From positions 150,304 through 214,303 of the forward strand of contig CAZAXH010000004.1 of assembly GCA_964489065.1 (NCBI GenBank): 64,000 nt of DNA, written 5' to 3'. The notes beneath the pieces were generated by a model. It did not search any database. It was not told the DNA's origin and saw only the letters and a program-made list of their open reading frames with translations. The first letter of the stretch is position 1. Every line of letters starts with the position of its first letter. Shown in pieces: positions 2,671 through 56,802 of this stretch. The position numbers and the translations under genes are program-made. Source of the DNA: an uncultured Planctomycetales bacterium. GTDB lineage: Bacteria; Omnitrophota; Gorgyraeia; Zapsychrales; JANLHA01.

Positions 2671-3999
2671 TTATCGTACGACGTCACCCACACGGATGGA
2701 GGTGACTTTGTTTTTAATATCCGCGGCGGCAATGTCTTTGCGCACCTGGATCACTTCCAGAGCCGCGACATACTCCGCTCCCCGGTAAACACTCATATTA
2801 TCCCCCAGCTTTAGACCGTCATTCTGGCCTAAATCAACGATAACAAAATTATTTTCATCATTCACGGAAACAATATTGCCGTCAAACCCCGGAGCGGGCA
2901 AAACGACTTCCGGGATCCCCTCGCTCTTTTCTCCAGCGCCGGAAACGACAATCGGCGGAAGCTCCACGGCCTTGGAAGACGCTCCTGACATCTGAAAATT
3001 TTTCTCCAGGCTGTCCTTAATTTGCCAGATCTCATCAATGCGGTTTTGAATGACATGCTCGGTTTCCATCAGTTTCCGCTCCACGTCCTTCTTTTCATCC
3101 TGCAGACGCACAATACTCTTTTCCAAAGCAATTTTAGTCGAACTCAAGTCTTTGATCTGAGACCGCAAGGCCATGTTTTCCTCGTTAAGTTTCGCGAAGC
3201 GGCCATTTAAAAATTCCTTATCATTTTCCGCCCGGGCTAGGGCCAGAGATAAATTGTCCGCCAAATCTTTCCCGTGTTTGATTTCCCGCTCAATAGAATC
3301 TTTGGTGGTAACCAACTCCGAAATTTCCAGCTCCAAGTCTGAGTTTGATTTCTTTAAGGCTTCCAACTCGAGCATATTGGCATCCAGTTTCTTTTTTAAA
3401 GCATTCACTTCCAGTTCAAGGGAAGTTTTCTCGCGGATGACCTGCGCCCAATAAGTTTCATTATCCGGCGGCACATCAGGGATATTGTTCGTCGATATTC
3501 TTTGACCGGGAGAAGACGGTTCCGGCTTGTTATCTGCCGCGGGGCTGACAGAAGCAACCGTCCCCGGAGGCTCCACCGGCGCTCCGGTTTCCCGCTCCAC
3601 ATATTTATAGACAATTTGCGGTTCGGATTTTTCTTTGACCTTAGATAACAAGGTGGTCCGCTCTTTTTCCAGCGCCGCTATTTTTTCCTGCAAGACATTC
3701 CGTTCGCCGGTCAAATCCGCAATCTGTTTGTTCAGGGACTCCACATCACCATCGAAAGAACTTAAGCGCTCTTCCAACTCGGATTTCTTTTTCTCAACAT
3801 CTTTCAGCTTTTCCTGCAGGTCTTTATTTTCAAAGATATATTTTTTCTCCCGTTGCTGAAAATCATCCACCTGTTTCTCCAAAGATATCTTTGATTTATC
3901 AGACTCTTGTTTCTGAAAAGCAATATACGTTAGCAATCCGACGGAGACAAAAAGCAATAAGAGCAAGAAAACTAAGATAGACTTTGCAGCTCTCGACAT
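2671..3999 (-). CDS. membrane-anchored long coiled-coil protein with C-terminal beta domain
   Basis: N-terminal TM helix, roughly 300 aa of heptad-rich E/K/L sequence, and a C-terminal domain (NIVSVNDENNFVIVDLGQNDGLKLGDNMSVYRG). Strong SD AAGGAGA before the ATG at 3999. Confidence 0.6.
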   Translation of the reverse strand: MSRAAKSILVFLLLLLFVSVGLLTYIAFQKQESDKSKISLEKQVDDFQQREKKYIFENKDLQEKLKDVEKKKSELEERLSSFDGDVESLNKQIADLTGERNVLQEKIAALEKERTTLLSKVKEKSEPQIVYKYVERETGAPVEPPGTVASVSPAADNKPEPSSPGQRISTNNIPDVPPDNETYWAQVIREKTSLELEVNALKKKLDANMLELEALKKSNSDLELEISELVTTKDSIEREIKHGKDLADNLSLALARAENDKEFLNGRFAKLNEENMALRSQIKDLSSTKIALEKSIVRLQDEKKDVERKLMETEHVIQNRIDEIWQIKDSLEKNFQMSGASSKAVELPPIVVSGAGEKSEGIPEVVLPAPGFDGNIVSVNDENNFVIVDLGQNDGLKLGDNMSVYRGAEYVAALEVIQVRKDIAAADIKNKVTSIRVGDVVR

Positions 4000-4202
4000 A
4001 TCATCTCCTTATGATAATAATATTTATAAGCTTGATATGAATATAACAAAGGATAGGAAGCAGCACAAGGAAAAAAGAAACAAAATGCGGATAGAAATAA
4101 CCCGAAGGATGATCCTGCTAAGGACAGCAAGGGGCCATCATCAAACCAAGGCTCTGAAGTAAATATCGACGGGCTTGCTGCGGCAAACCCGCGGACAACG
4201 AC

Positions 4203-5056: not shown

Positions 5057-5917
5057 TTATTCTTCCTCCAAAGCCTCAAGTTTCTGTTGGGCGCCTTCCG
5101 CCGGCTTCCAGAACCAGCCCTTGGGGTCCCAACACTGTGAAAAATAATAGTCATCAACCAGCTTCTTGAAATTCTTCTTGGCTTCTTCTTTGTTGCCGGC
5201 ATTCAAATAAGCTTCGCCTCTGATAAAAAGGCAGGTCCCAACGTCATTCAGCGCCCAGTATGAAAAAATCTTGTCTTTCGACTCCCAAGCGTATTCGGTC
5301 ATGGATTCCTGCATCTCTTTAGCTTTGGCCTCATAAAGCTCCAAACACTTATTCGTGTAAGCAACAACGCTGTCCAAATCCTTATTAGCAAGGGCTTCCC
5401 ATGCTTTGACGGTCAACGTCATAGACGTATAGTCACCGAAGTCCAAATTAGAACCAGATTCGATCATGGCGATCTTTTCTTTTGCGGCCTCCGCCGGTTT
5501 CCAAAACCACCCCTTCGGGTCCCAGCATTGACCATACGTATACTCGTCCACCACCGTCTGATACGCCTTCACCGCTTCATCCGTCATTTTAGCTTTGCGG
5601 TACGCTTCCCCCTGGATAAACAGGCCGGTCGCAATATCGTTCAACGCCCAGTATGAAAAAATTTCATCGTTCGTACCTGTCGGATAAGCCGTCAGACTGG
5701 CCTGCATCTTTTTGGCCTGCTCGGCGTATAATTCAACGCATTTATTCGTGTAAGCCAAAACGGCCTCCAAGTCGTTTTCTCCCAAGGCCTGCCAGGCGTT
5801 CGTGATCAACGTGACAGAGCGGTAATCCCCAAAATTATAGGCAGCGGCGGGCACAGGAATGGCTAAAGACACTCCTACCATGGCCATCATCATGCATAAT
5901 AAAATCTTTTTGTACAT
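5057..5917 (-). CDS. secreted protein composed of two tandem copies of a Trp-rich helical domain (QCWDPKGWFWKPAE motif)
   Basis: Signal peptide, then two roughly 130-aa repeats (aa 27-156 and 157-286) with about 60% identity. Each ends in [YF]xQCWDPKGWFWKPAE. Confidence 0.8.
   Translation of the reverse strand: MYKKILLCMMMAMVGVSLAIPVPAAAYNFGDYRSVTLITNAWQALGENDLEAVLAYTNKCVELYAEQAKKMQASLTAYPTGTNDEIFSYWALNDIATGLFIQGEAYRKAKMTDEAVKAYQTVVDEYTYGQCWDPKGWFWKPAEAAKEKIAMIESGSNLDFGDYTSMTLTVKAWEALANKDLDSVVAYTNKCLELYEAKAKEMQESMTEYAWESKDKIFSYWALNDVGTCLFIRGEAYLNAGNKEEAKKNFKKLVDDYYFSQCWDPKGWFWKPAEGAQQKLEALEEE
5060..5839 (-). repeat. in-frame tandem duplication (2 x ~390 bp) inside the CDS
   Basis: The two halves align at about 70% nucleotide identity, e.g. 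gccggcttccagaaccagcccttggggtcccaacactg versus gccggtttccaaaaccaccccttcgggtcccagcattg. Confidence 0.7.
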
Positions 5918-6150
5918 CTCTAAGGTCCCTCCAGTTGGTTAAACGCGATTTCCTTTCAAATGAATTTCTTATATTAAGGCCCCTATGCCTTCCGAGGCAA
6001 TCTAACCTTGCGGTCAGATACGGGTAATAAAAAATTTAATCAGTTCTCCACACCCCCTCTCCTATTAAGATATATACCAAAAAACAACGGAGTAATTATA
6101 GCATTTTTACCCGTTATTTAGCAAATTGAATCTTAGCCCAACCCCCGTCT

Positions 6151-8772
6151 TCAGTTCCAAGCTTCCTTGTAAAACTCATAACTCTTCCGCAACTGACGCA
6201 TAAACGGGCTGTGCGTCCCATTGCCCTGACTTGTAATACCAAACCATTCCTCATAATAATACCCTCCGGGGAAAGGCCCGATGGCATCAGAACGGCGGTC
6301 ATGATAAAATGGCTCGTAATTCTTCCACCATTCATCCGTCCACTCAAAGACAACCCCTCCCAGGGCGTTCCCGGCCCCTTCCGCATGCCCTGCCATATTG
6401 GCTTCAATATCATGCCAGTTGCCACGATGATAATTCATCTGCGCCTCCTCGCCTTCCGCTTTCGTGAGATGCTTGGCATAGGCCGGGCAACCGTATTCTG
6501 TAATAAAAGCCGCTTTCCCGGTTGACTCCTGAACCTGTTGCCAGAAAGCGCCAAAACCATAGTCCCCGCGGTAAACATTGGCCGCAAAAATATCAATATC
6601 CGGCGCATTCTTCGCAAAAATATCCAAATACAGGGTATCGCCGTTACATAATGCTACCGGATGATTAGGATCAATGCTCTTGATCATTTTAGCCACTTCA
6701 TTGGCAAACTTGTAATACGCTTCTGGTTTTTTGTCCGCGTTAGAGGCGACCCCGTAATTATTCTCGTTTCCCAAAAGCCAAAACAAAAGATACGGCTCGT
6801 CCTTATGTTCCATGACCATCTGACGGACGGATTCCATCATATTCTTCTGATGTTCCGGATTTTCATAATCGGTCCCCTCAAACCAGGTTGCCCCGGACCC
6901 CAGAGTATATTTCCCAAGAAAATCGCCTAAGATCACCCGGATACCATGTTCTTCATAAAGCTTACGGAAAACCTCTTTATCCGGTTTAATCGGCTGCTGG
7001 TATTCGCGAATGGTGTTGCCGCCCATCTCCTTAATCAGCTTGAAATCCCCGACCACCGGCTCATCCGGGTCCTGCTGATTGTTGCCGTTTCTATCCACCC
7101 AGGAATCATAAGGGCCGTCCGGCTTGCCGTTCTTATTGGTGTCTTCATACATCCAGGACACCAAGGTTCCCTTGTCCGGACTCTGGCCGATCTTGGTCGG
7201 AGCATAAGTAATCCCTTTGATAACATAGGGGTTGCCATCGACAAAAAGTTGCCAGTGCCCGTTATCATACTGAACGAGTGACACCTTGCCTTCTCCCAAA
7301 CGCCGGGCAACATTCCGTAACGGCACCTTTTTTTGATCCAGGTTCAGGCTTCCCTTCACCTTATCCATCCAGCCCCTTTCCTGAACGACCCCGGGATACG
7401 TGACAACAATGTCATTGCTGACATCGTTGTCAAAACCGTTTTTAACTTCTATTTTCATCCACTTCACTTTTAAATTTAATTCCGGATGAGACCGCACCAA
7501 ATAAACAATCTTGGAAACCGCGGCCTGGGCCGGATACCAGGGCGTCTGCCAGTAAGTCCACCCGACCGTTTTGGGAAAATGGACAACAATGGCCTGGTAA
7601 GTTTTAATGGCTTCATAATACATCTGCGCTTTTTCAAAAATCATACCCAGGTAAAAAAGCTTGACCCCTCCGGGTTCCGGAGCCGTCGCCCATTTATAAA
7701 AAGCCGCCTCCAGGTCATCGCTATGAACAAAATCCCAGTGGCTTCCTTCCAGGCGGCCCTCCTTTTTGGCCTGTTTATATTTCGGATCCTTAAACACATC
7801 GGCGGTATTAGGGTATATCCCTTCTCCGACAGCCTCCTTCAAGCCCTTAAGATCGTTGATCTTATAATGATACCGATCTGTCCCCACGTCCAGGAACTCG
7901 CCGTATTTATGATAATCGACCACTTGATCTGTCCCGGGAAACGCCAGCGAGGGGAGGGTCTTCAACCGTGTCGGCGGCTCCTCCACCTCCTCTTCAACTT
8001 TCCCGGTCATGACATCAATACTTGCCTGGCTCTTTTCCGCCACCGACCAGTACGACCCGCGGGAAGGGTCCCAGGCCTGCGCCCAAGGATATTCATCAAT
8101 GATCTTCTGAAAGGTCGCGATCGACTCTTCCGTGCGTCCGTAATTCATCATGGCTTCCGCCTGGACAAAAAAGAGAGTGGCCACCGCATTCAAATAAGGA
8201 TAATCCTTTTCCTTGCCGCGCCCGGGAAATCCGGACAACGACGCTTCTTCTTTGCGGGCCTCGGCGTCAAAAAGCGTTAAAGCCACCCCCACCAGCTTAT
8301 CCAACGGCTCCAGCTTCCTCTGGCTGGACAATTCCCACGCCTTCCGGACAAAATCCTCCGTCGTCGCCCCGGCTTCAAGTTCAATGTCCGCGTAAGGGAA
8401 ATTCCCGTCTGCCGGTAATGTAATAACACTCTTTTCCGCAGAAACATCCTGTGCGACTTCTCCCTCGGCATTACCGCCCTTTTCCACGGCCGCTTCAGCC
8501 GCCGGAGATTCTGTTTCCGCCGCCGGAACGGCTCCTTCCGGAACGCTCCCGGCCGCGGCTTCAGAGCCCTGGGCTTCCTGCTGTACCGTGTCTGGAGCAA
8601 GGGAACTCTCCTGCTTCACCGGCTCTTGCGCCTCAACGGTCGTTTGAATAGCCGGGCTTTCGCCAGCCGCTTCCTGAGCATAGCCGAATGTCGCCGGGCT
8701 TAACAGGAAAATTCCCGCCAAAAGTATTGATAATCGCGACACAGTTTTTTCCCCTTGATTATTTTTTTTCAC
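6151..8772 (-). CDS. secreted multidomain glycoside hydrolase: signal peptide, A/E-rich linker, two copies of the Trp-rich helical domain, then a clan GH-A TIM-barrel (GH2/GH5-like) catalytic domain
   Basis: Candidate catalytic motifs LLGNENNYG and ITEYGCP plus DEWWK. N-terminal half contains YPWAQAWDPSRGSYWSVAE and VGWTYWQTPWYPAQAA, matching the domain in 5057-5917. GTG start with GGGAGG SD. Confidence 0.75.
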   Translation of the reverse strand: MKKNNQGEKTVSRLSILLAGIFLLSPATFGYAQEAAGESPAIQTTVEAQEPVKQESSLAPDTVQQEAQGSEAAAGSVPEGAVPAAETESPAAEAAVEKGGNAEGEVAQDVSAEKSVITLPADGNFPYADIELEAGATTEDFVRKAWELSSQRKLEPLDKLVGVALTLFDAEARKEEASLSGFPGRGKEKDYPYLNAVATLFFVQAEAMMNYGRTEESIATFQKIIDEYPWAQAWDPSRGSYWSVAEKSQASIDVMTGKVEEEVEEPPTRLKTLPSLAFPGTDQVVDYHKYGEFLDVGTDRYHYKINDLKGLKEAVGEGIYPNTADVFKDPKYKQAKKEGRLEGSHWDFVHSDDLEAAFYKWATAPEPGGVKLFYLGMIFEKAQMYYEAIKTYQAIVVHFPKTVGWTYWQTPWYPAQAAVSKIVYLVRSHPELNLKVKWMKIEVKNGFDNDVSNDIVVTYPGVVQERGWMDKVKGSLNLDQKKVPLRNVARRLGEGKVSLVQYDNGHWQLFVDGNPYVIKGITYAPTKIGQSPDKGTLVSWMYEDTNKNGKPDGPYDSWVDRNGNNQQDPDEPVVGDFKLIKEMGGNTIREYQQPIKPDKEVFRKLYEEHGIRVILGDFLGKYTLGSGATWFEGTDYENPEHQKNMMESVRQMVMEHKDEPYLLFWLLGNENNYGVASNADKKPEAYYKFANEVAKMIKSIDPNHPVALCNGDTLYLDIFAKNAPDIDIFAANVYRGDYGFGAFWQQVQESTGKAAFITEYGCPAYAKHLTKAEGEEAQMNYHRGNWHDIEANMAGHAEGAGNALGGVVFEWTDEWWKNYEPFYHDRRSDAIGPFPGGYYYEEWFGITSQGNGTHSPFMRQLRKSYEFYKEAWN

Positions 8773-12082: not shown

Positions 12083-12111
12083 ATTCTATCATGCATGTTT
12101 TATTTTGTCAA
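12083..12111 (-). promoter_or_regulatory. sigma70-type promoter for the ABC transporter operon
   Basis: On the minus strand: TTGACA, 17 nt, TAGAAT, about 135 nt upstream of the SBP start. Confidence 0.55.
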
Positions 12112-12150: not shown

Positions 12151-12290
12151 CTCAATTAACCGCAGCAAGCTGCAGGGTATGAACCCAACATCCTTCGGCT
12201 CGTTCGCTTGGGCTCACTCGCTGAAGGATCAGTTCGCATTTTTAGTTTACACTCCCTTTGGTCGTGTAAACTAAATGCTCATTGAATAAA
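12151..12290. repeat. ~140 bp intergenic repeat element, copy 1, with conserved hairpin GTTTACAC-N11-GTGTAAAC at 12245-12271
   Basis: About 80% identical to 56662-56802. Lies between the GH94 stop and the ABC operon promoter. Confidence 0.7.
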
Positions 12291-33354: not shown

Positions 33355-33383
33355 TTGACAAAAGCACGGCTCAATGCTATATT
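33355..33383 (+). promoter_or_regulatory. sigma70-type promoter for tRNA-Ala
   Basis: TTGACA, 17 nt, TATATT, ending 15 nt before the tRNA 5' end. Confidence 0.55.
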
Positions 33384-50139: not shown

Positions 50140-50610
50140 CTAGCGGCCCCACATACTGTAAAAAATAATCGACATCAGGCAGCCGATGATGGAACCAATA
50201 AAAACCTGAATGGGGGTGTGCCCGATAAGTTCCACAAGGCGGTTGGTTTCGATCTTCCCCCTCCAGTAGATATCCTCAAGAATCTTGTTCAATATTTCCG
50301 CCTGTTGCCCCGTGGCCCTGCGGACCCCCTGGGCGTCAAACATCGTGACCAAGGCAAAAACAGCGGAAAGGGCGAAGATCACCGAGTCGAATCCCCGTTC
50401 CATGCCTATGGTCGTGGCCAAGGCGGTAGCCCCCGCGGCGTGGCTGGACGGCATGCCTCCGGTCCCGATAAACCAGCGGAAATTAAACCGCCGTTCCCGA
50501 ATGACCCCCAGGAATACTTTAATACACTGCGCCAAAGCCCAGACAGTCAGTGTGATGACCAGAATTTTATTACGCAAAATCTCTTTAACAAGTATGATCA
50601 GGAATTCCAT
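50140..50610 (-). CDS. DUF212 / divergent PAP2-family membrane protein (YuiD-like)
   Basis: GGMPSSHAAGATALATTIG motif and 4 TM helices. GGGAG SD. Confidence 0.7.
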   Translation of the reverse strand: MEFLIILVKEILRNKILVITLTVWALAQCIKVFLGVIRERRFNFRWFIGTGGMPSSHAAGATALATTIGMERGFDSVIFALSAVFALVTMFDAQGVRRATGQQAEILNKILEDIYWRGKIETNRLVELIGHTPIQVFIGSIIGCLMSIIFYSMWGR

Positions 50611-50679
50611 AAACTCCCAGGGTATGCCGGCAGCCCCGCGCTTAACCGCAAGCGGGACAAAGATTAATAACGTTTATTG

Positions 50680-50814
50680 CTATAATTGACATGATTCCGA
50701 ATTTATGTCGCTTACATTATAATTTTGCTTCCCCAAAAATGCAAGGTCTTTCATTTCCTTCTTTTAATATTATTATCGGTAATAGAAGAAAACTTCCCCC
50801 CTGAAACGGACCCT
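50680..50814 (-). promoter_or_regulatory. duplicated promoter cassette, copy A: minus-strand TTGCAT-17-TATAAT (50716-50744) plus ~100 bp conserved upstream region
   Basis: About 80% identical over roughly 140 bp to 52099-52248. Lies 70-200 bp upstream of the DUF212 gene start. Confidence 0.55.
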
Positions 50815-50967
50815 GAACAGCCAGCGGACGATTTACGCCAATATCCAGATCATGTGATATTCTCCAAGCCGAAAGAAAGGACAACGAAATCTCCTGAACG
50901 ATCCCACGGTCAAGCGGCAAGAAGAACAAGGCGGGCTCGCGGCCTAGTTCAGAGCAACGGAATCTTC

Positions 50968-51942
50968 TCAAGCACAATCCTTGGAAGCGGCCCCTGCATT
51001 TGTATTTTCCCGGGTTTTCTCCCAATCGAGAATAGTCTTGACCACAATGCCGATACGCTTGTCCCCAAATCCCCGCCCCAGCTTGAAATTGACGATGCCG
51101 GACTGCAGTTGCAGACGCATAAGCGCATTCACATCACATAGTCTTATCACCTGTTTATACGCCGAACACGTCCCCAGGTGCCGGCAGGCAAAGGCAATCG
51201 TTCCGAAAAGGATACGCGCGTCTATAATCCCAGGCCCCAGAAGAGACTGCTTGTTCTCGCGAGACATATATTCATAGTGGTCATAGGAATTGCAGGCGTT
51301 CGAGCAGTAAGAATTCGCGATGGCGATAATCTTAGCGCGGCAATCCGCTGCCGCTGCGGTAAGCACACGTTCACGGCGCGAATCCTGGGGCGTGAGGCAC
51401 ACGTAATCATAGCGCCGGCAGTCCTCGTGGTACATACGAAGTGTTTCCTGGGGCGTGAGGATTTTATCGGGGCTGACATATTTCGTGCACGAACTCACGT
51501 AGACAAGCGCGTCCCCGTAGGTCGAGCGCACATGCCGTTCCAGAAGGGCATTATTAACGATAATACCGTTACGCATTCCGTAACGCCGCCCGATTGCAGC
51601 GACACACTCAACAGGCAACAGGTTCTTTTCCGTAAGCTCATCCTCGCGGACAAACATGTTCGTAAACGCCAGCCGGAATGAAATCCCCGCGGCATTCAGT
51701 TGTTCAACCGTGGCTTCAAACGACTTAACCGCGCGCGAAAGTTCTCCCCTAGTTAAGCCAATCCAGAGCCTTCCGTAGAGCCTCATCCTGTCGAGGAGAA
51801 AATTATTCCTCCCCCCGTTAAACGGAGAGTCAGGGAACCCTCCGTAGGCAACCACCTCAATACAATCCCGGCGATGCGCCTCGATAAGACGAGCCCGGGG
51901 ATTTGCGTACAAAGGCACTTCAATAGAATATTTTTTAGTCAT
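50968..51942 (-). CDS. Cys-rich hypothetical protein, possibly a divergent peptidase-U32/UbiV-like TIM-barrel protein
   Basis: 324 aa. N-terminus IEVPLYANPRARLIEAHRRDCIEVVAYGGFPDSPFNGGR loosely resembles the U32 N-terminal consensus. Cys cluster IANSYCSNACNSY. Family assignment is weak. Confidence 0.5.
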   Translation of the reverse strand: MTKKYSIEVPLYANPRARLIEAHRRDCIEVVAYGGFPDSPFNGGRNNFLLDRMRLYGRLWIGLTRGELSRAVKSFEATVEQLNAAGISFRLAFTNMFVREDELTEKNLLPVECVAAIGRRYGMRNGIIVNNALLERHVRSTYGDALVYVSSCTKYVSPDKILTPQETLRMYHEDCRRYDYVCLTPQDSRRERVLTAAAADCRAKIIAIANSYCSNACNSYDHYEYMSRENKQSLLGPGIIDARILFGTIAFACRHLGTCSAYKQVIRLCDVNALMRLQLQSGIVNFKLGRGFGDKRIGIVVKTILDWEKTRENTNAGAASKDCA

Positions 51943-52098
51943 GGTCCCTAAAAGCAGCCGCGGTACCCACGCGCCTCAAGGCTGCGAGAACAGCACAAGG
52001 AGCGGCGGCCTTACGCACCCCTCCCCTGCCCGCGCAAAACAGGACGGATTTTTATAGATATAAAAAAATCCCTTTTCGCATATCTTATGCAAATTGGT

Positions 52099-52248
52099 AT
52101 TATTTGACATAATTCCGAAGTTATGTTAGTTTACATTATAATTTTGCTTCCCCCAAAATGCAATGTAAGCTCTCTGATTTTCTTCTTTTAATATTCTTAT
52201 TGGTCATGACAGAAAACTTCCCCCTTAAACAGACCCCTCTTTTTCCCA
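52099..52248 (-). promoter_or_regulatory. duplicated promoter cassette, copy B: minus-strand TTGCAT-17-TATAAT (52135-52163) plus conserved upstream region
   Basis: Same architecture as copy A. Lies about 190 bp upstream of the 324-aa gene start. Confidence 0.55.
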
Positions 52249-52532
52249 TTTTATAACAACACCCCCACAAGAAAGACGTATATTTTACGATATCCCACGT
52301 TTTCGGGTCGGCCAGCATCAGGCAAACAACCATTCGCCGCTATAAAGGGACGCTTTTCCCGCCAGCAGCCAAAATTACTGGACCCGCCTGAAAAACCGGG
52401 GGACCGGACAGGATTTCATCCCCACAATTAAACCCAAAAAAGGCCGCCCGGCTGTTTTCTTGTGAAAACACGGCGCAGGACGAGCCTCGTCATTTCCTTA
52501 ATTGAAATGACAAAAAGATGACGGGAAATACC

Positions 52533-54062
52533 ATGTTATCAAAAACCTACAGTTACGCCTTAAGCGGCATTGATTCCTATTTAGTCACGATTGAAGTTGA
52601 TTGTTCGCGCGGCCTGCCGGCAACGATTATTGTCGGGCTTCCCGACAACGCGCTCAAGGAAAGCAAAGAACGGGTCCGCGCGGCCATTAAAAACAGCGGA
52701 CACAAATTCCCCTCTTCCAGAAGCACCGTCAACCTTTCTCCAGCAGACACAAAAAAGGAAGGCCCGGCCTTTGATTTGCCGATCGCCTTAGGGGTATTGG
52801 CGGCCTCCGAACAGATTTCCCCGCAACGCTTGAATGAATACGCCCTTTTGGGAGAGCTCTCTCTGGACGGGAAGGTCAAGCCTGTCAAGGGCGCGCTGTC
52901 CATCGCGCTGTCTATGGATAAAAACCGTTTTAAAGGACTTGTCCTGCCGGCGGCTAACGCTCCGGAAGCGGCCATTGCCGATGTCATCGACGTTTATCCG
53001 GCGGATTCCCTCAACCAGGTGCTCCATTTTCTCTCTGTGCCGGAAAGCATCCGCCCCTTTAAAACCGATCCCTCCCTGCTCACAGATCAACCCGATGACG
53101 GGGGGCTGGATTTTGCCGATATCAAGGGCCAATACCAAGTCAAGCGCGGCCTCGAGATATGCGCCGCGGGGGCGCACAATTGTCTGCTGATAGGCAGCCC
53201 CGGCACAGGAAAATCGCTCGCCCTGCGCCGGTTAAACAGCATTATCCCTGAAATGAGCCGGGAAGAAATCCTGGAAACCACCCGGATTTATTCCGCCATG
53301 GGCCTGGTGAAATCAAAAACGGGAATGGTGACGCAACGCCCCTTCCGCTCTCCCCACCCTACGACCTCGGACGTGGCCCTGGTCGGAGGCGGATCAACCC
53401 CCCGTCCGGGGGAGGTGACCCTGGCCCACAACGGCATCCTTTTCCTGGACGAACTTCCCGAATTCAGCCGTAACGCGCTTGAAGCGCTGCGTCAGCCCCT
53501 GGAAGAAAAAATCGTCACCATCTCCCGCGCGTCTAAAACCATGCAGTTTCCCGCCAACTTTATGTTCGTCGCCGCCATGAACCCCTGTCCGTGCGGATTT
53601 TTCACCGACCCGAAAAAGGAATGCCGGTGTTCCTCCTGGCAGATCCAGAGGTATATTTCCAAAGTGTCCGGCCCGCTGCTGGACCGCATCGACCTTCATC
53701 TGGACGTGCCGTCCCTCCCGCCGGAGGAACTCCTGTCCGACACAAAAGGAGAACCGTCGGCGCAAATCAAAGAAAGAACCGTCAAGGCCAGGGAAATTCA
53801 AAAAAAGCGGTTTGCCGGCACCGGCATCGCCGTCAACGCGCAACTCAATCACCGCCAGCTCAAAGAATACTGCCCCCTGTCCCCAAAATGCCGCACCCTG
53901 CTCAAACAAGCCATTGAAGAGCTCAATTTCTCCGCCCGGGCCCACGATAAAATCATCAAGGTGGCTCGAACTGTAAGTGACTTGGCTGGCTCCCCCGACA
54001 TTTTGCCCGAGCATATTGCCGAGGCGATTCAATATCGGAGTCTGGACAGGGGCTTTTGTTAA
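52533..54062 (+). CDS. comM: Mg-chelatase-like AAA+ ATPase YifB/ComM
   Basis: N-terminal Lon-protease-like domain, Walker A GSPGTGKS, Walker B ILFLDELPEF, C-terminal ComM domain. ATG at 52533. Confidence 0.85.
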   Translation: MLSKTYSYALSGIDSYLVTIEVDCSRGLPATIIVGLPDNALKESKERVRAAIKNSGHKFPSSRSTVNLSPADTKKEGPAFDLPIALGVLAASEQISPQRLNEYALLGELSLDGKVKPVKGALSIALSMDKNRFKGLVLPAANAPEAAIADVIDVYPADSLNQVLHFLSVPESIRPFKTDPSLLTDQPDDGGLDFADIKGQYQVKRGLEICAAGAHNCLLIGSPGTGKSLALRRLNSIIPEMSREEILETTRIYSAMGLVKSKTGMVTQRPFRSPHPTTSDVALVGGGSTPRPGEVTLAHNGILFLDELPEFSRNALEALRQPLEEKIVTISRASKTMQFPANFMFVAAMNPCPCGFFTDPKKECRCSSWQIQRYISKVSGPLLDRIDLHLDVPSLPPEELLSDTKGEPSAQIKERTVKAREIQKKRFAGTGIAVNAQLNHRQLKEYCPLSPKCRTLLKQAIEELNFSARAHDKIIKVARTVSDLAGSPDILPEHIAEAIQYRSLDRGFC

Positions 54063-56661: not shown

Positions 56662-56802
56662 CTCAATAAACCGCAACAAGCCTCCGGGGTATTAAACCCA
56701 TATCCTTCGACTCCTTCGCTTGGGCTCTCTCGTCTCAGGATCAATTCGCATTTTTAATTTACACTCCTTTCGGTCGTGTAAATTAAATGCTCATTAAATA
56801 AA
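56662..56802. repeat. ~140 bp intergenic repeat element, copy 2, hairpin ATTTACAC-N11-GTGTAAAT at 56757-56783
   Basis: About 80% identical to 12151-12290. Stem positions 1 and 8 show compensatory G>A and C>T changes relative to copy 1. Confidence 0.7.

Follow-up and report, generated by a model that had tools for sequence, protein, structure and literature searches.

The 64-kb stretch of DNA analysed here, called the window below, comes from an uncultured Omnitrophota bacterium (contig CAZAXH010000004.1, positions 150,304 to 214,303) and contains two A/T-rich direct repeats of ~140 bp, copies A and B. Each stands upstream of a minus-strand gene, one encoding a DUF212 protein and the other an uncharacterised cysteine-rich (Cys-rich) protein of 324 amino acids. 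We consider it highly probable that the repeated cassette is the conserved core of the spacer between the divergent genes comM and DUF212, and that it was duplicated around an insert in this lineage. The order found along the window is native left flank, copy A, insert, copy B and native right flank, with the following features:

50140-50610, minus strand: DUF212 (divergent PAP2) gene, predicted to be the first gene served by copy A (Pfam PF02681, E = 1.9e-47)
50676-50814: copy A, with a left flank orthologous to the DUF212-proximal side of the relatives (BLASTN; MAFFT against copy B and the single-copy sequences of relatives L010, L011, L012, L049 and L047; nhmmer)
50815-52092: insert between the copies, 1278 bp, in which the Cys-rich gene is flanked by 153 bp on its 3' side and by 150 bp on its 5' side (the latter with an A/T-rich hairpin at about 52046-52071)
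50968-51942, minus strand: Cys-rich gene, 324 amino acids, of an uncharacterised TIM-barrel family
52093-52238: copy B, with a right flank orthologous to the comM-proximal side of the relatives (BLASTN; nhmmer)
52518-54062, plus strand: comM/YifB-type Mg-chelatase-like ATPase gene, downstream of copy B (Pfam Mg_chelatase, ChlI and Mg_chelatase_C; synteny)

The repeat pair and its copy number

The two copies are 81.4% identical over 145 columns in a BLASTN alignment (50676-50813 against 52093-52236, E = 5e-32), 79% identical when aligned with MAFFT, and 84% identical across the core columns. They have in common an exact core of 23 nucleotides (nt), TTACATTATAATTTTGCTTCCCC, located at 50712-50734 in copy A and at 52131-52153 in copy B, and matched in none of 100 shuffles. 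Copy A lies 66-204 nt upstream of the DUF212 start codon (ATG at 50610), and copy B 151-296 nt upstream of that of the Cys-rich gene (ATG at 51942). An earlier, sequence-only reading of this DNA had described two look-alike copies of about 80% identity, one ahead of each of the two minus-strand genes, and both observations hold; its coordinates were about right too, with the correction that copy B ends near 52238 and not at 52248.

Further copies, which that reading had thought worth looking for, were found nowhere beyond this locus. In the window, exact and mismatch pattern searches with TTACATTATAATTTTGCTTCCCC and two other sub-motifs returned copies A and B only, and no third copy emerged from these searches or from an nhmmer profile search with all filters off, in which copy A scored E = 5e-34 and copy B E = 3e-32. 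Scanned against a genome collection, core 19-20-mers matched this locus in the sister genome L008 and, by chance, one Alteromonadaceae gene, and nothing else; in the metagenome scan, 3 of the 32 matches carry the element, all of them at the same locus and with nothing new, and the viral-collection scan gave none. The ends of copies A and B have no terminal inverted repeats, and there are no short target duplications.

A single ancestral copy between comM and DUF212

Protein homologues assign the window to Candidatus Omnitrophota, and its relatives were collected through their DUF212 homologues. One further contig, L001 (Logan, SRR15237810), has the same sequence as the window, and the others are listed here by the amino acid identity of their DUF212 protein:

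L008, L042 and L050-L063: 99%; about 93% nucleotide identity; at least 11 contigs
L012-14, L021 and L027: 96%
L010 and L049: 94%; L010 from a 3.3-Mb contig
L011: 88%; from a 3.36-Mb contig
L047: 84%
L048: 80%; comM not adjacent

In seven related Omnitrophota lineages (L010, L049, L011, L012-14 and L047), comM and DUF212 are direct divergent neighbours with a spacer of 178-590 bp, which contains the element a single time. By this synteny, comM is the original divergent partner of DUF212. The left flank of copy A, from 50620 onwards, matches the DUF212-proximal side of the single-copy sequence in the relatives, and the right flank of copy B matches its comM-proximal side, first to 52277 and then at 52371-52443; the overlap of the two flank alignments is the duplicated ~140 bp. 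The copies resemble each other more (identity 0.84) than either resembles any outgroup (0.69-0.75), and five derived states, at columns where four outgroups do not vary, are common to both. On these two grounds, the second copy is to be explained by a duplication within this lineage, rather than by the arrival of a copy from outside. The sister lineage (L008, L042, L050-L063; at least 11 contigs) has the two copies as well, so that the duplication is inherited and would go back to an ancestor that the window genome shared with the L008-type strains.

The same data bear on the idea, among those put forward in the sequence-only reading, that the cassette is a small mobilisable promoter element. 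Two ~140-bp copies, roughly 81% identical and upstream of unrelated genes, are what one would expect if an element resembling a miniature inverted-repeat transposable element (MITE) or a putative mobile promoter had transposed ahead of both, and the reuse of promoters is a documented concept (PMC3575422). However, all relatives have the element in a single copy at the orthologous comM-DUF212 site, unlinked copies are missing from the window, genome, metagenome and viral scans, the hallmarks of transposition are lacking at the ends, and both copies flank one and the same insert, which calls for one event and not two transpositions. We find a mobile element a most improbable explanation.

A predicted two-way promoter

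What was duplicated has, in its core of ~70 bp, the form of two opposed and interlocked promoters of the sigma-70 type. The predicted promoters and related motifs are:

50716-50744, minus strand: predicted promoter of the DUF212-ldt-accA-rlmN gene string in copy A (-35 TTGCAT at 50744-50739, 17-nt spacer, -10 TATAAT at 50721-50716)
52135-52163, minus strand: the same predicted promoter in copy B, upstream of the 324-amino-acid gene (match to the pattern TTGCAT-17-TATAAT)
52104-52132, plus strand: predicted comM-directed promoter in copy B (TTGACA, 17-nt spacer, TGT-TAGTTT as extended -10)
50686-50714, plus strand: copy A equivalent of the comM promoter, degenerate (TTGACA kept; TAGTTT turned into CGCTTA by a 1-nt deletion and a substitution)
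50678-50686, plus strand: TGcTATAAT, resembling an extended -10, at the left end of copy A (lineage-specific; outgroups read AAAAT-type sequence)

On the minus strand, transcription is predicted to start near 50709 in copy A and near 52128 in copy B, with leaders of about 100 nt to DUF212 and about 186 nt to the Cys-rich gene. In the relatives L010, L049, L011, L012, L047 and L048, the promoter reads TTGCTT-17-TATAAT, with position and hexamers kept while the spacer sequence varies; a variable run (CCCC/CTTC/AACC/TCTT) falls within this spacer. In L048, it is retained where all else has changed. The looser pattern TTG-N20-TATAAT has four matches in the window against 0.37 expected. The conserved minus-strand promoter that the sequence-only reading had assigned to the cassette is thus borne out, TTGC(A/T)T-17-TATAAT being in place in every relative examined; the description of it as near-consensus holds for the -10, which is perfect in both copies, and fails for the -35, as TTGCAT and TTGACA agree at just 3 of 6 positions. 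A simple promoter scan omits TTGCAT-17-TATAAT for this very reason.

The same reading had dismissed the plus strand as non-functional, seeing there only TTGACA-26-TATAAT, and here we disagree. The promoter predicted at 52104-52132 would start transcription near 52139, with a leader of about 380 nt to comM, and it is conserved in all relatives with comM adjacent: TTGACA-17-TGT-TAGTTT is identical in copy B, L8_B, L010, L049, L011 and L012, and L047 has TTGACT-17-TGG-TAAATT, in which the critical bases are kept and others changed. L048, the only relative without comM as the upstream neighbour, lacks TTGACA and retains the minus-strand promoter; on this single case, the plus-strand promoter appears tied to comM. 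The pattern TTGACA-N14-TGnTAnnnT occurs three times in the window against 0.02 expected, at 33355-33383 (plus), 12083-12111 (minus) and 52104-52132 (plus), the first of these being a tRNA-Ala promoter, 16 nt upstream of tRNA-Ala (33399). Because of this excess, and with one match directly before a tRNA gene, we take the architecture to be in real use in this genome, as far as pattern counts can tell. The comparison gives a first view across Omnitrophota of a promoter architecture, TTGACA-17-TGnTAnnnT, that is common to a tRNA promoter and may serve as a template for promoter prediction in this genome.

Copy A has lost the plus-strand -10. No -10 is present at 16-18 nt from its TTGACA in the window or in L008 (CGCTTA or TGCTTA), and the responsible changes, a 1-nt deletion and a T-to-C substitution (columns 42 and 44 of alignment A5), are derived in copy A only, in both genomes. 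At the left edge, the motif TGcTATAAT of copy A corresponds in copy B to TGgTATTAT, ending at 52103, where a simple scan lists TTCGCA-17-TATTAT with TG at 52075-52103; an A-to-T change in this motif is derived and common to both copies (A5 column 15). This motif may give extra plus-strand starts. The left-edge TGnTATAAT was also considered as the main plus-strand promoter and rejected, since it is not conserved in the outgroups, and we keep it as a lineage-specific possibility.

The two predicted starts of copy B, near 52128 (minus) and 52139 (plus), are about 11 bp apart, each within the -10 of the opposite promoter, and the -10 hexamers themselves interlock (52127-52132 on the plus and 52135-52140 on the minus strand). 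By this geometry, the core would be a compact bidirectional promoter. A TAnnnT -10 placed 16-18 bp from a TTGnnn -35, as expected of sigma-70 promoters, is present on the minus strand in both copies and on the plus strand in copy B; each promoter matches 9 of 12 consensus positions; and in alignments of 9-10 sequences, hexamers and spacing are conserved while the spacer drifts.

The strength of this conservation can be judged against the pooled fourfold-degenerate sites of DUF212, ldt and accA. At these sites, identity to the window has fallen to 0.39 in L011 and 0.37 in L047, which is near saturation, and stands at 0.56-0.58 in L010/L049 and 0.71 in L012. The two parts of the cassette compare as follows:

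~70-bp promoter block (A5 columns 18-90): identity 0.85-0.91 among L011, the other outgroups and copy A; L047 against the others 0.59-0.74
distal ~57 columns: identity 0.51-0.65 among L011, the other outgroups and copy A; L047 against the others 0.23-0.33

Since the identity of the block stays high while the fourfold sites are saturated, the promoter block is under strong purifying selection. Its invariant or nearly invariant parts are TTGACAT, TTATGTTAGTTTACATTATAATTTTGCTT and AAAA-GCAAGG, its variable positions form two runs of about 4-9 nt, and the variation is concentrated in the two spacers. The sequence-only reading had taken the ~100 bp of conserved upstream sequence as a sign of a regulator-binding or UP region. 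Across species, the distal part is weakly constrained, and its identity of 0.83 between copies A and B reflects their recent common origin.

Alternatively, the conserved block could encode a small RNA, a structured leader or a small protein, and the duplication would then have made two gene copies; in keeping with this, about 140 nt are conserved, possible plus-strand promoters lie at the left edge, and a plus-strand hairpin GACAU...AUGUY is predicted. The evidence of an RNA is nevertheless poor: Rfam gives no match at the gathering threshold or at E <= 10, RNAalifold on nine homologues and about 150 columns reaches just -5.2 kcal/mol on the plus and -1.7 kcal/mol on the minus strand, and the covariation terms are positive, with one compensatory pair at most. 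As for a protein, the open reading frames (ORFs) of copies A and B differ in frame because of a 5-nt insertion or deletion, and the orthologue in copy B of L008 is frameshifted. Conservation, moreover, follows the promoter hexamers and lets the spacers vary, so that we hold an RNA or protein gene to be very improbable.

More can be said for a transcription-factor operator as the primary role of the block, with DUF212, the inserted gene and comM as a co-regulated module. A 29-nt stretch across the two -10 elements, TTTATGTTAGTTTACATTATAATTTTGCTT, shows no change among five lineages although synonymous sites are saturated, and both copies retain it; it contains a perfect palindrome, ATTATAAT, and ACAT/ATGT half-sites. 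On the other hand, the motif has no other sites in the window or in the flanks of the relatives that would speak for a regulon, no regulator gene is adjacent, and two interlocked promoters with their start regions already constrain most positions. As a primary role, we think this unlikely, though it could coexist with the duplicated bidirectional promoter that we favour.

Several points weigh against our interpretation. All start sites and promoter assignments are predictions, and the simple scan, which demands at least 4 of 6 matches in each hexamer, accepts neither promoter. Long leaders are predicted (about 100, 186 and 380 nt, as given above), and promoters closer to the genes could exist. 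The link between TTGACA and comM comes from one informative relative, L048, and the 29-nt block exceeds the strict need of two -10 elements, so that a regulator site may be involved. In copy A, the perfect TGcTATAAT may still fire on the plus strand, which would weaken the case for complementary degeneration made below. Finally, the mismatch search of this genome for further copies covered the 64-kb window.

The inserted gene

Window positions 50815-52092 show no similarity to the comM-DUF212 spacers of the relatives in alignments, and it is for this lack of a counterpart that we call the segment an insert. The Cys-rich protein has no sequence match in Pfam, NCBIfam or the Protein Data Bank (PDB). 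Its AlphaFold2 model has a TIM-barrel fold (predicted local distance difference test score, 88), and the fold search yielded only generic matches (MTHFR, the U32 peptidase Mk0906 and DHPS; template-modelling scores of about 0.4-0.5). The family comprises about 78 proteins, mostly from Omnitrophota, with C213, C217, H222 and C259 among the invariant residues, and in Margulisbacteria it is fused to a TylF-type methyltransferase. No homologue stands beside comM or DUF212 in the loci of the relatives that were read, L010 and L011 included; the best non-self homologue is 57% identical, and the homologue loci read (P0002 and P0003) have other contexts, one of them adjoining PMT_2 and glycosyltransferase genes. 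It is for these reasons that the gene looks acquired. A database copy of the protein, P0001, has 295 amino acids, or 91% of the 324-amino-acid ORF, and appears to begin 29 codons downstream, at a GTG (Val30). Given that homologues align over 94-99% of the 324-amino-acid ORF, the ATG at 51942 is the likelier start.

The A/T-rich hairpin of the 5' flank, GGATTTTT-ATAGATAT-AAAAAAATCC at 52046-52071, lies in the predicted leader between the minus-strand promoter of copy B and the Cys-rich gene. The right breakpoint (52061/52062) of the deletion found in L008-type strains, described below, is inside this hairpin.

Direct repeats that bracket a discrete single-gene insert also bring to mind attL/attR-type junctions left by the site-specific integration of a gene cassette. 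Yet no integrase or recombinase is found in or next to the insert: its single ORF has no recombinase domain, and next to it are comM, DUF212 and a histidine kinase. Core att sites are typically much shorter than these repeats of about 140 bp, which equal the native promoter region of the relatives. We give such an origin hardly any credence, and return to a resident promoter region duplicated around the insert.

History of the locus

In the scenario that we propose, a 1278-bp segment with the 324-amino-acid gene would have entered the comM-DUF212 spacer in an ancestor common to the L008-type strains and the window genome, and ~140 bp of the promoter region would have been left duplicated on both sides of it. 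The new gene would thereby have come to stand behind the native minus-strand promoter, in copy B, with DUF212 keeping copy A and the comM promoter being kept in copy B. Later, copy A, which no longer has comM downstream, would have lost its plus-strand -10, and copy B would have kept the comM promoter and gained the 5-nt insertion that is seen directly upstream of its minus-strand -35. How the duplication came about we can only infer, and the data would fit two routes: a Campbell-type single crossover with a circular fragment that carried a promoter copy and the gene, or a short tandem duplication, with the segment then inserted where the repeats meet. The ends of the insert have no inverted repeats and no obvious microhomology.

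The subsequent fate of the copies looks like partial complementary degeneration. In L008-type strains, a stretch corresponding to 51223-52061 of the window is deleted, removing the first three quarters (~240 codons) of the Cys-rich gene and 120 bp upstream; the remnant, residues 235-324, is decaying behind copy B at 79% amino acid identity. The gene is intact only in the window genome, with one contig on record, and truncated in at least 11 sister contigs. In copy B of L008, where the inserted gene is truncated, the minus-strand -35 now reads CTGCAT. A bolder proposal would be that the locus is a natural and datable case of a duplicated bidirectional promoter in complementary degeneration after gene capture and that the 29-nt block is the site of an Omnitrophota regulator that co-controls comM, the DUF212 operon and the newcomer; this we offer as a tentative idea that may well prove wrong.

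Two other histories were considered and rejected. In the first, a tandem duplication arose from an L011-like ancestor and the Cys-rich gene was moved from the other side of comM; the 324-amino-acid protein of L011 and the radical-SAM protein of L010 that stand beside comM are, however, unrelated to the Cys-rich protein. In the second, a larger duplication would have left a remnant of the comM 5' end to the right of copy A; no significant similarity was found there, and a comM relic exists only near copy B, in L008-type strains.

This relic, 238 bp from a comM N-terminus, is located in L008 at 6060-6299 (minus strand), facing 52277/52278 of the window, and likewise in L042 at 6605-6829; the window is without it. 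Placed between copy B and the real comM, it covers residues 6-80 with no stop codons and is 43% identical to the resident comM, its DNA being closest to comM of the L010 type (69%). The relic suggests an earlier replacement of comM or another rearrangement at this locus, which seems to be rearrangement-prone.

Comparison with known systems

Overall, the locus adds a well-documented case to a known kind of event; it does not represent a novel type of element. In the literature on bidirectional promoters (Warman et al. 2021, as described in PMC12825309 and PMC10268837), divergent starts are 7-25 bp apart, with 18, 10 and 23 bp as common spacings, and in the 10-bp class the starts lie within the -10 region. 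The core described here would share with those promoters a short, pseudo-symmetric, A/T-rich -10 region (ATTATAAT plus TAGTTT), opposed promoters and divergent genes, and its predicted starts, about 11 bp apart, fall in the 7-25 bp range, near the 10-bp class. It differs from them in having its own -35 in each direction (TTGACA and TTGCNT) and an extended -10 on the plus strand, and its starts are predicted, in an uncultured member of the Omnitrophota.

Putative mobile promoters were defined by Matus-Garcia, Nijveen and van Passel (2012) as sequences of at least 50 nt and at least 80% identity upstream of non-homologous genes, mostly found in pairs, in a screen of positions -150 to -50 from the start codon (PMC3575422). 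With 81.4% identity over 145 columns, our repeats would qualify by likeness, and they are a pair, ahead of a PF02681 protein and a protein with no Pfam match. Their positions, however, do not suit the definition, as copy A (-66 to -204) overlaps the screened range in part and copy B (-151 to -296) lies outside it. Unlike a mobile promoter, moreover, the pair can be traced to a local duplication around one insert, and all genomes and metagenome contigs with the element have it at the comM-DUF212 locus only, with no mobility seen. The MITEs with outward promoters that are cited in the same source, the Correia, ERIC and REPIN elements, are similarly short, repeated intergenic DNA with promoter signals; ours has neither their terminal inverted repeats nor target-site duplications, and it comes in two copies at one locus.

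Close parallels are cases of promoter capture or duplication by which newly acquired or silent genes are activated, such as the citT example (Blount et al., as cited in PMC3575422), and the duplication-driven activation of transferred genes (PMC6614815, PMC11111574). Here, too, a gene with no counterpart at the loci of close relatives stands behind a duplicated resident promoter, and the residents keep theirs. The event at hand differs from those cases in being natural and old, with copies that have diverged by 16-19% and are fixed in two sub-lineages, and in being known from its sequence alone; the captured gene was, furthermore, later truncated in the sister lineage.

With the ancestral state still kept in relatives, the locus shows how an inserted gene can gain transcription signals, namely by the duplication of a resident two-way promoter. 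It also carries a lesson for the interpretation of similar findings: two upstream regions of one genome may be alike simply because they arose by local duplication not long ago, and a comparison across species is needed before regulators or mobile elements are invoked.

Other repeats in the window

A second family of intergenic repeats, 121 nt long, is found in the window at 12170-12290 and 56682-56802, where the copies are 84% identical, and also in L008 at 3839-3942 and 3951-4046. Either strand folds into two to three strong hairpins (z = -4.1 to -5.0), with none of 200 shuffles as stable, and the differences between the copies preserve the pairing, for example AGUUUACAC/GUGUAAACU against AAUUUACAC/GUGUAAAUU. 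Rfam gave no match to this repeat even at E = 10, and we consider it a candidate structured RNA or an element resembling repetitive extragenic palindromes (REP-like). A direct repeat of 73 nt at 5208-5280 and 5601-5673, with 78% identity and a spacing of 393 bp, could be a repeat within a coding sequence.

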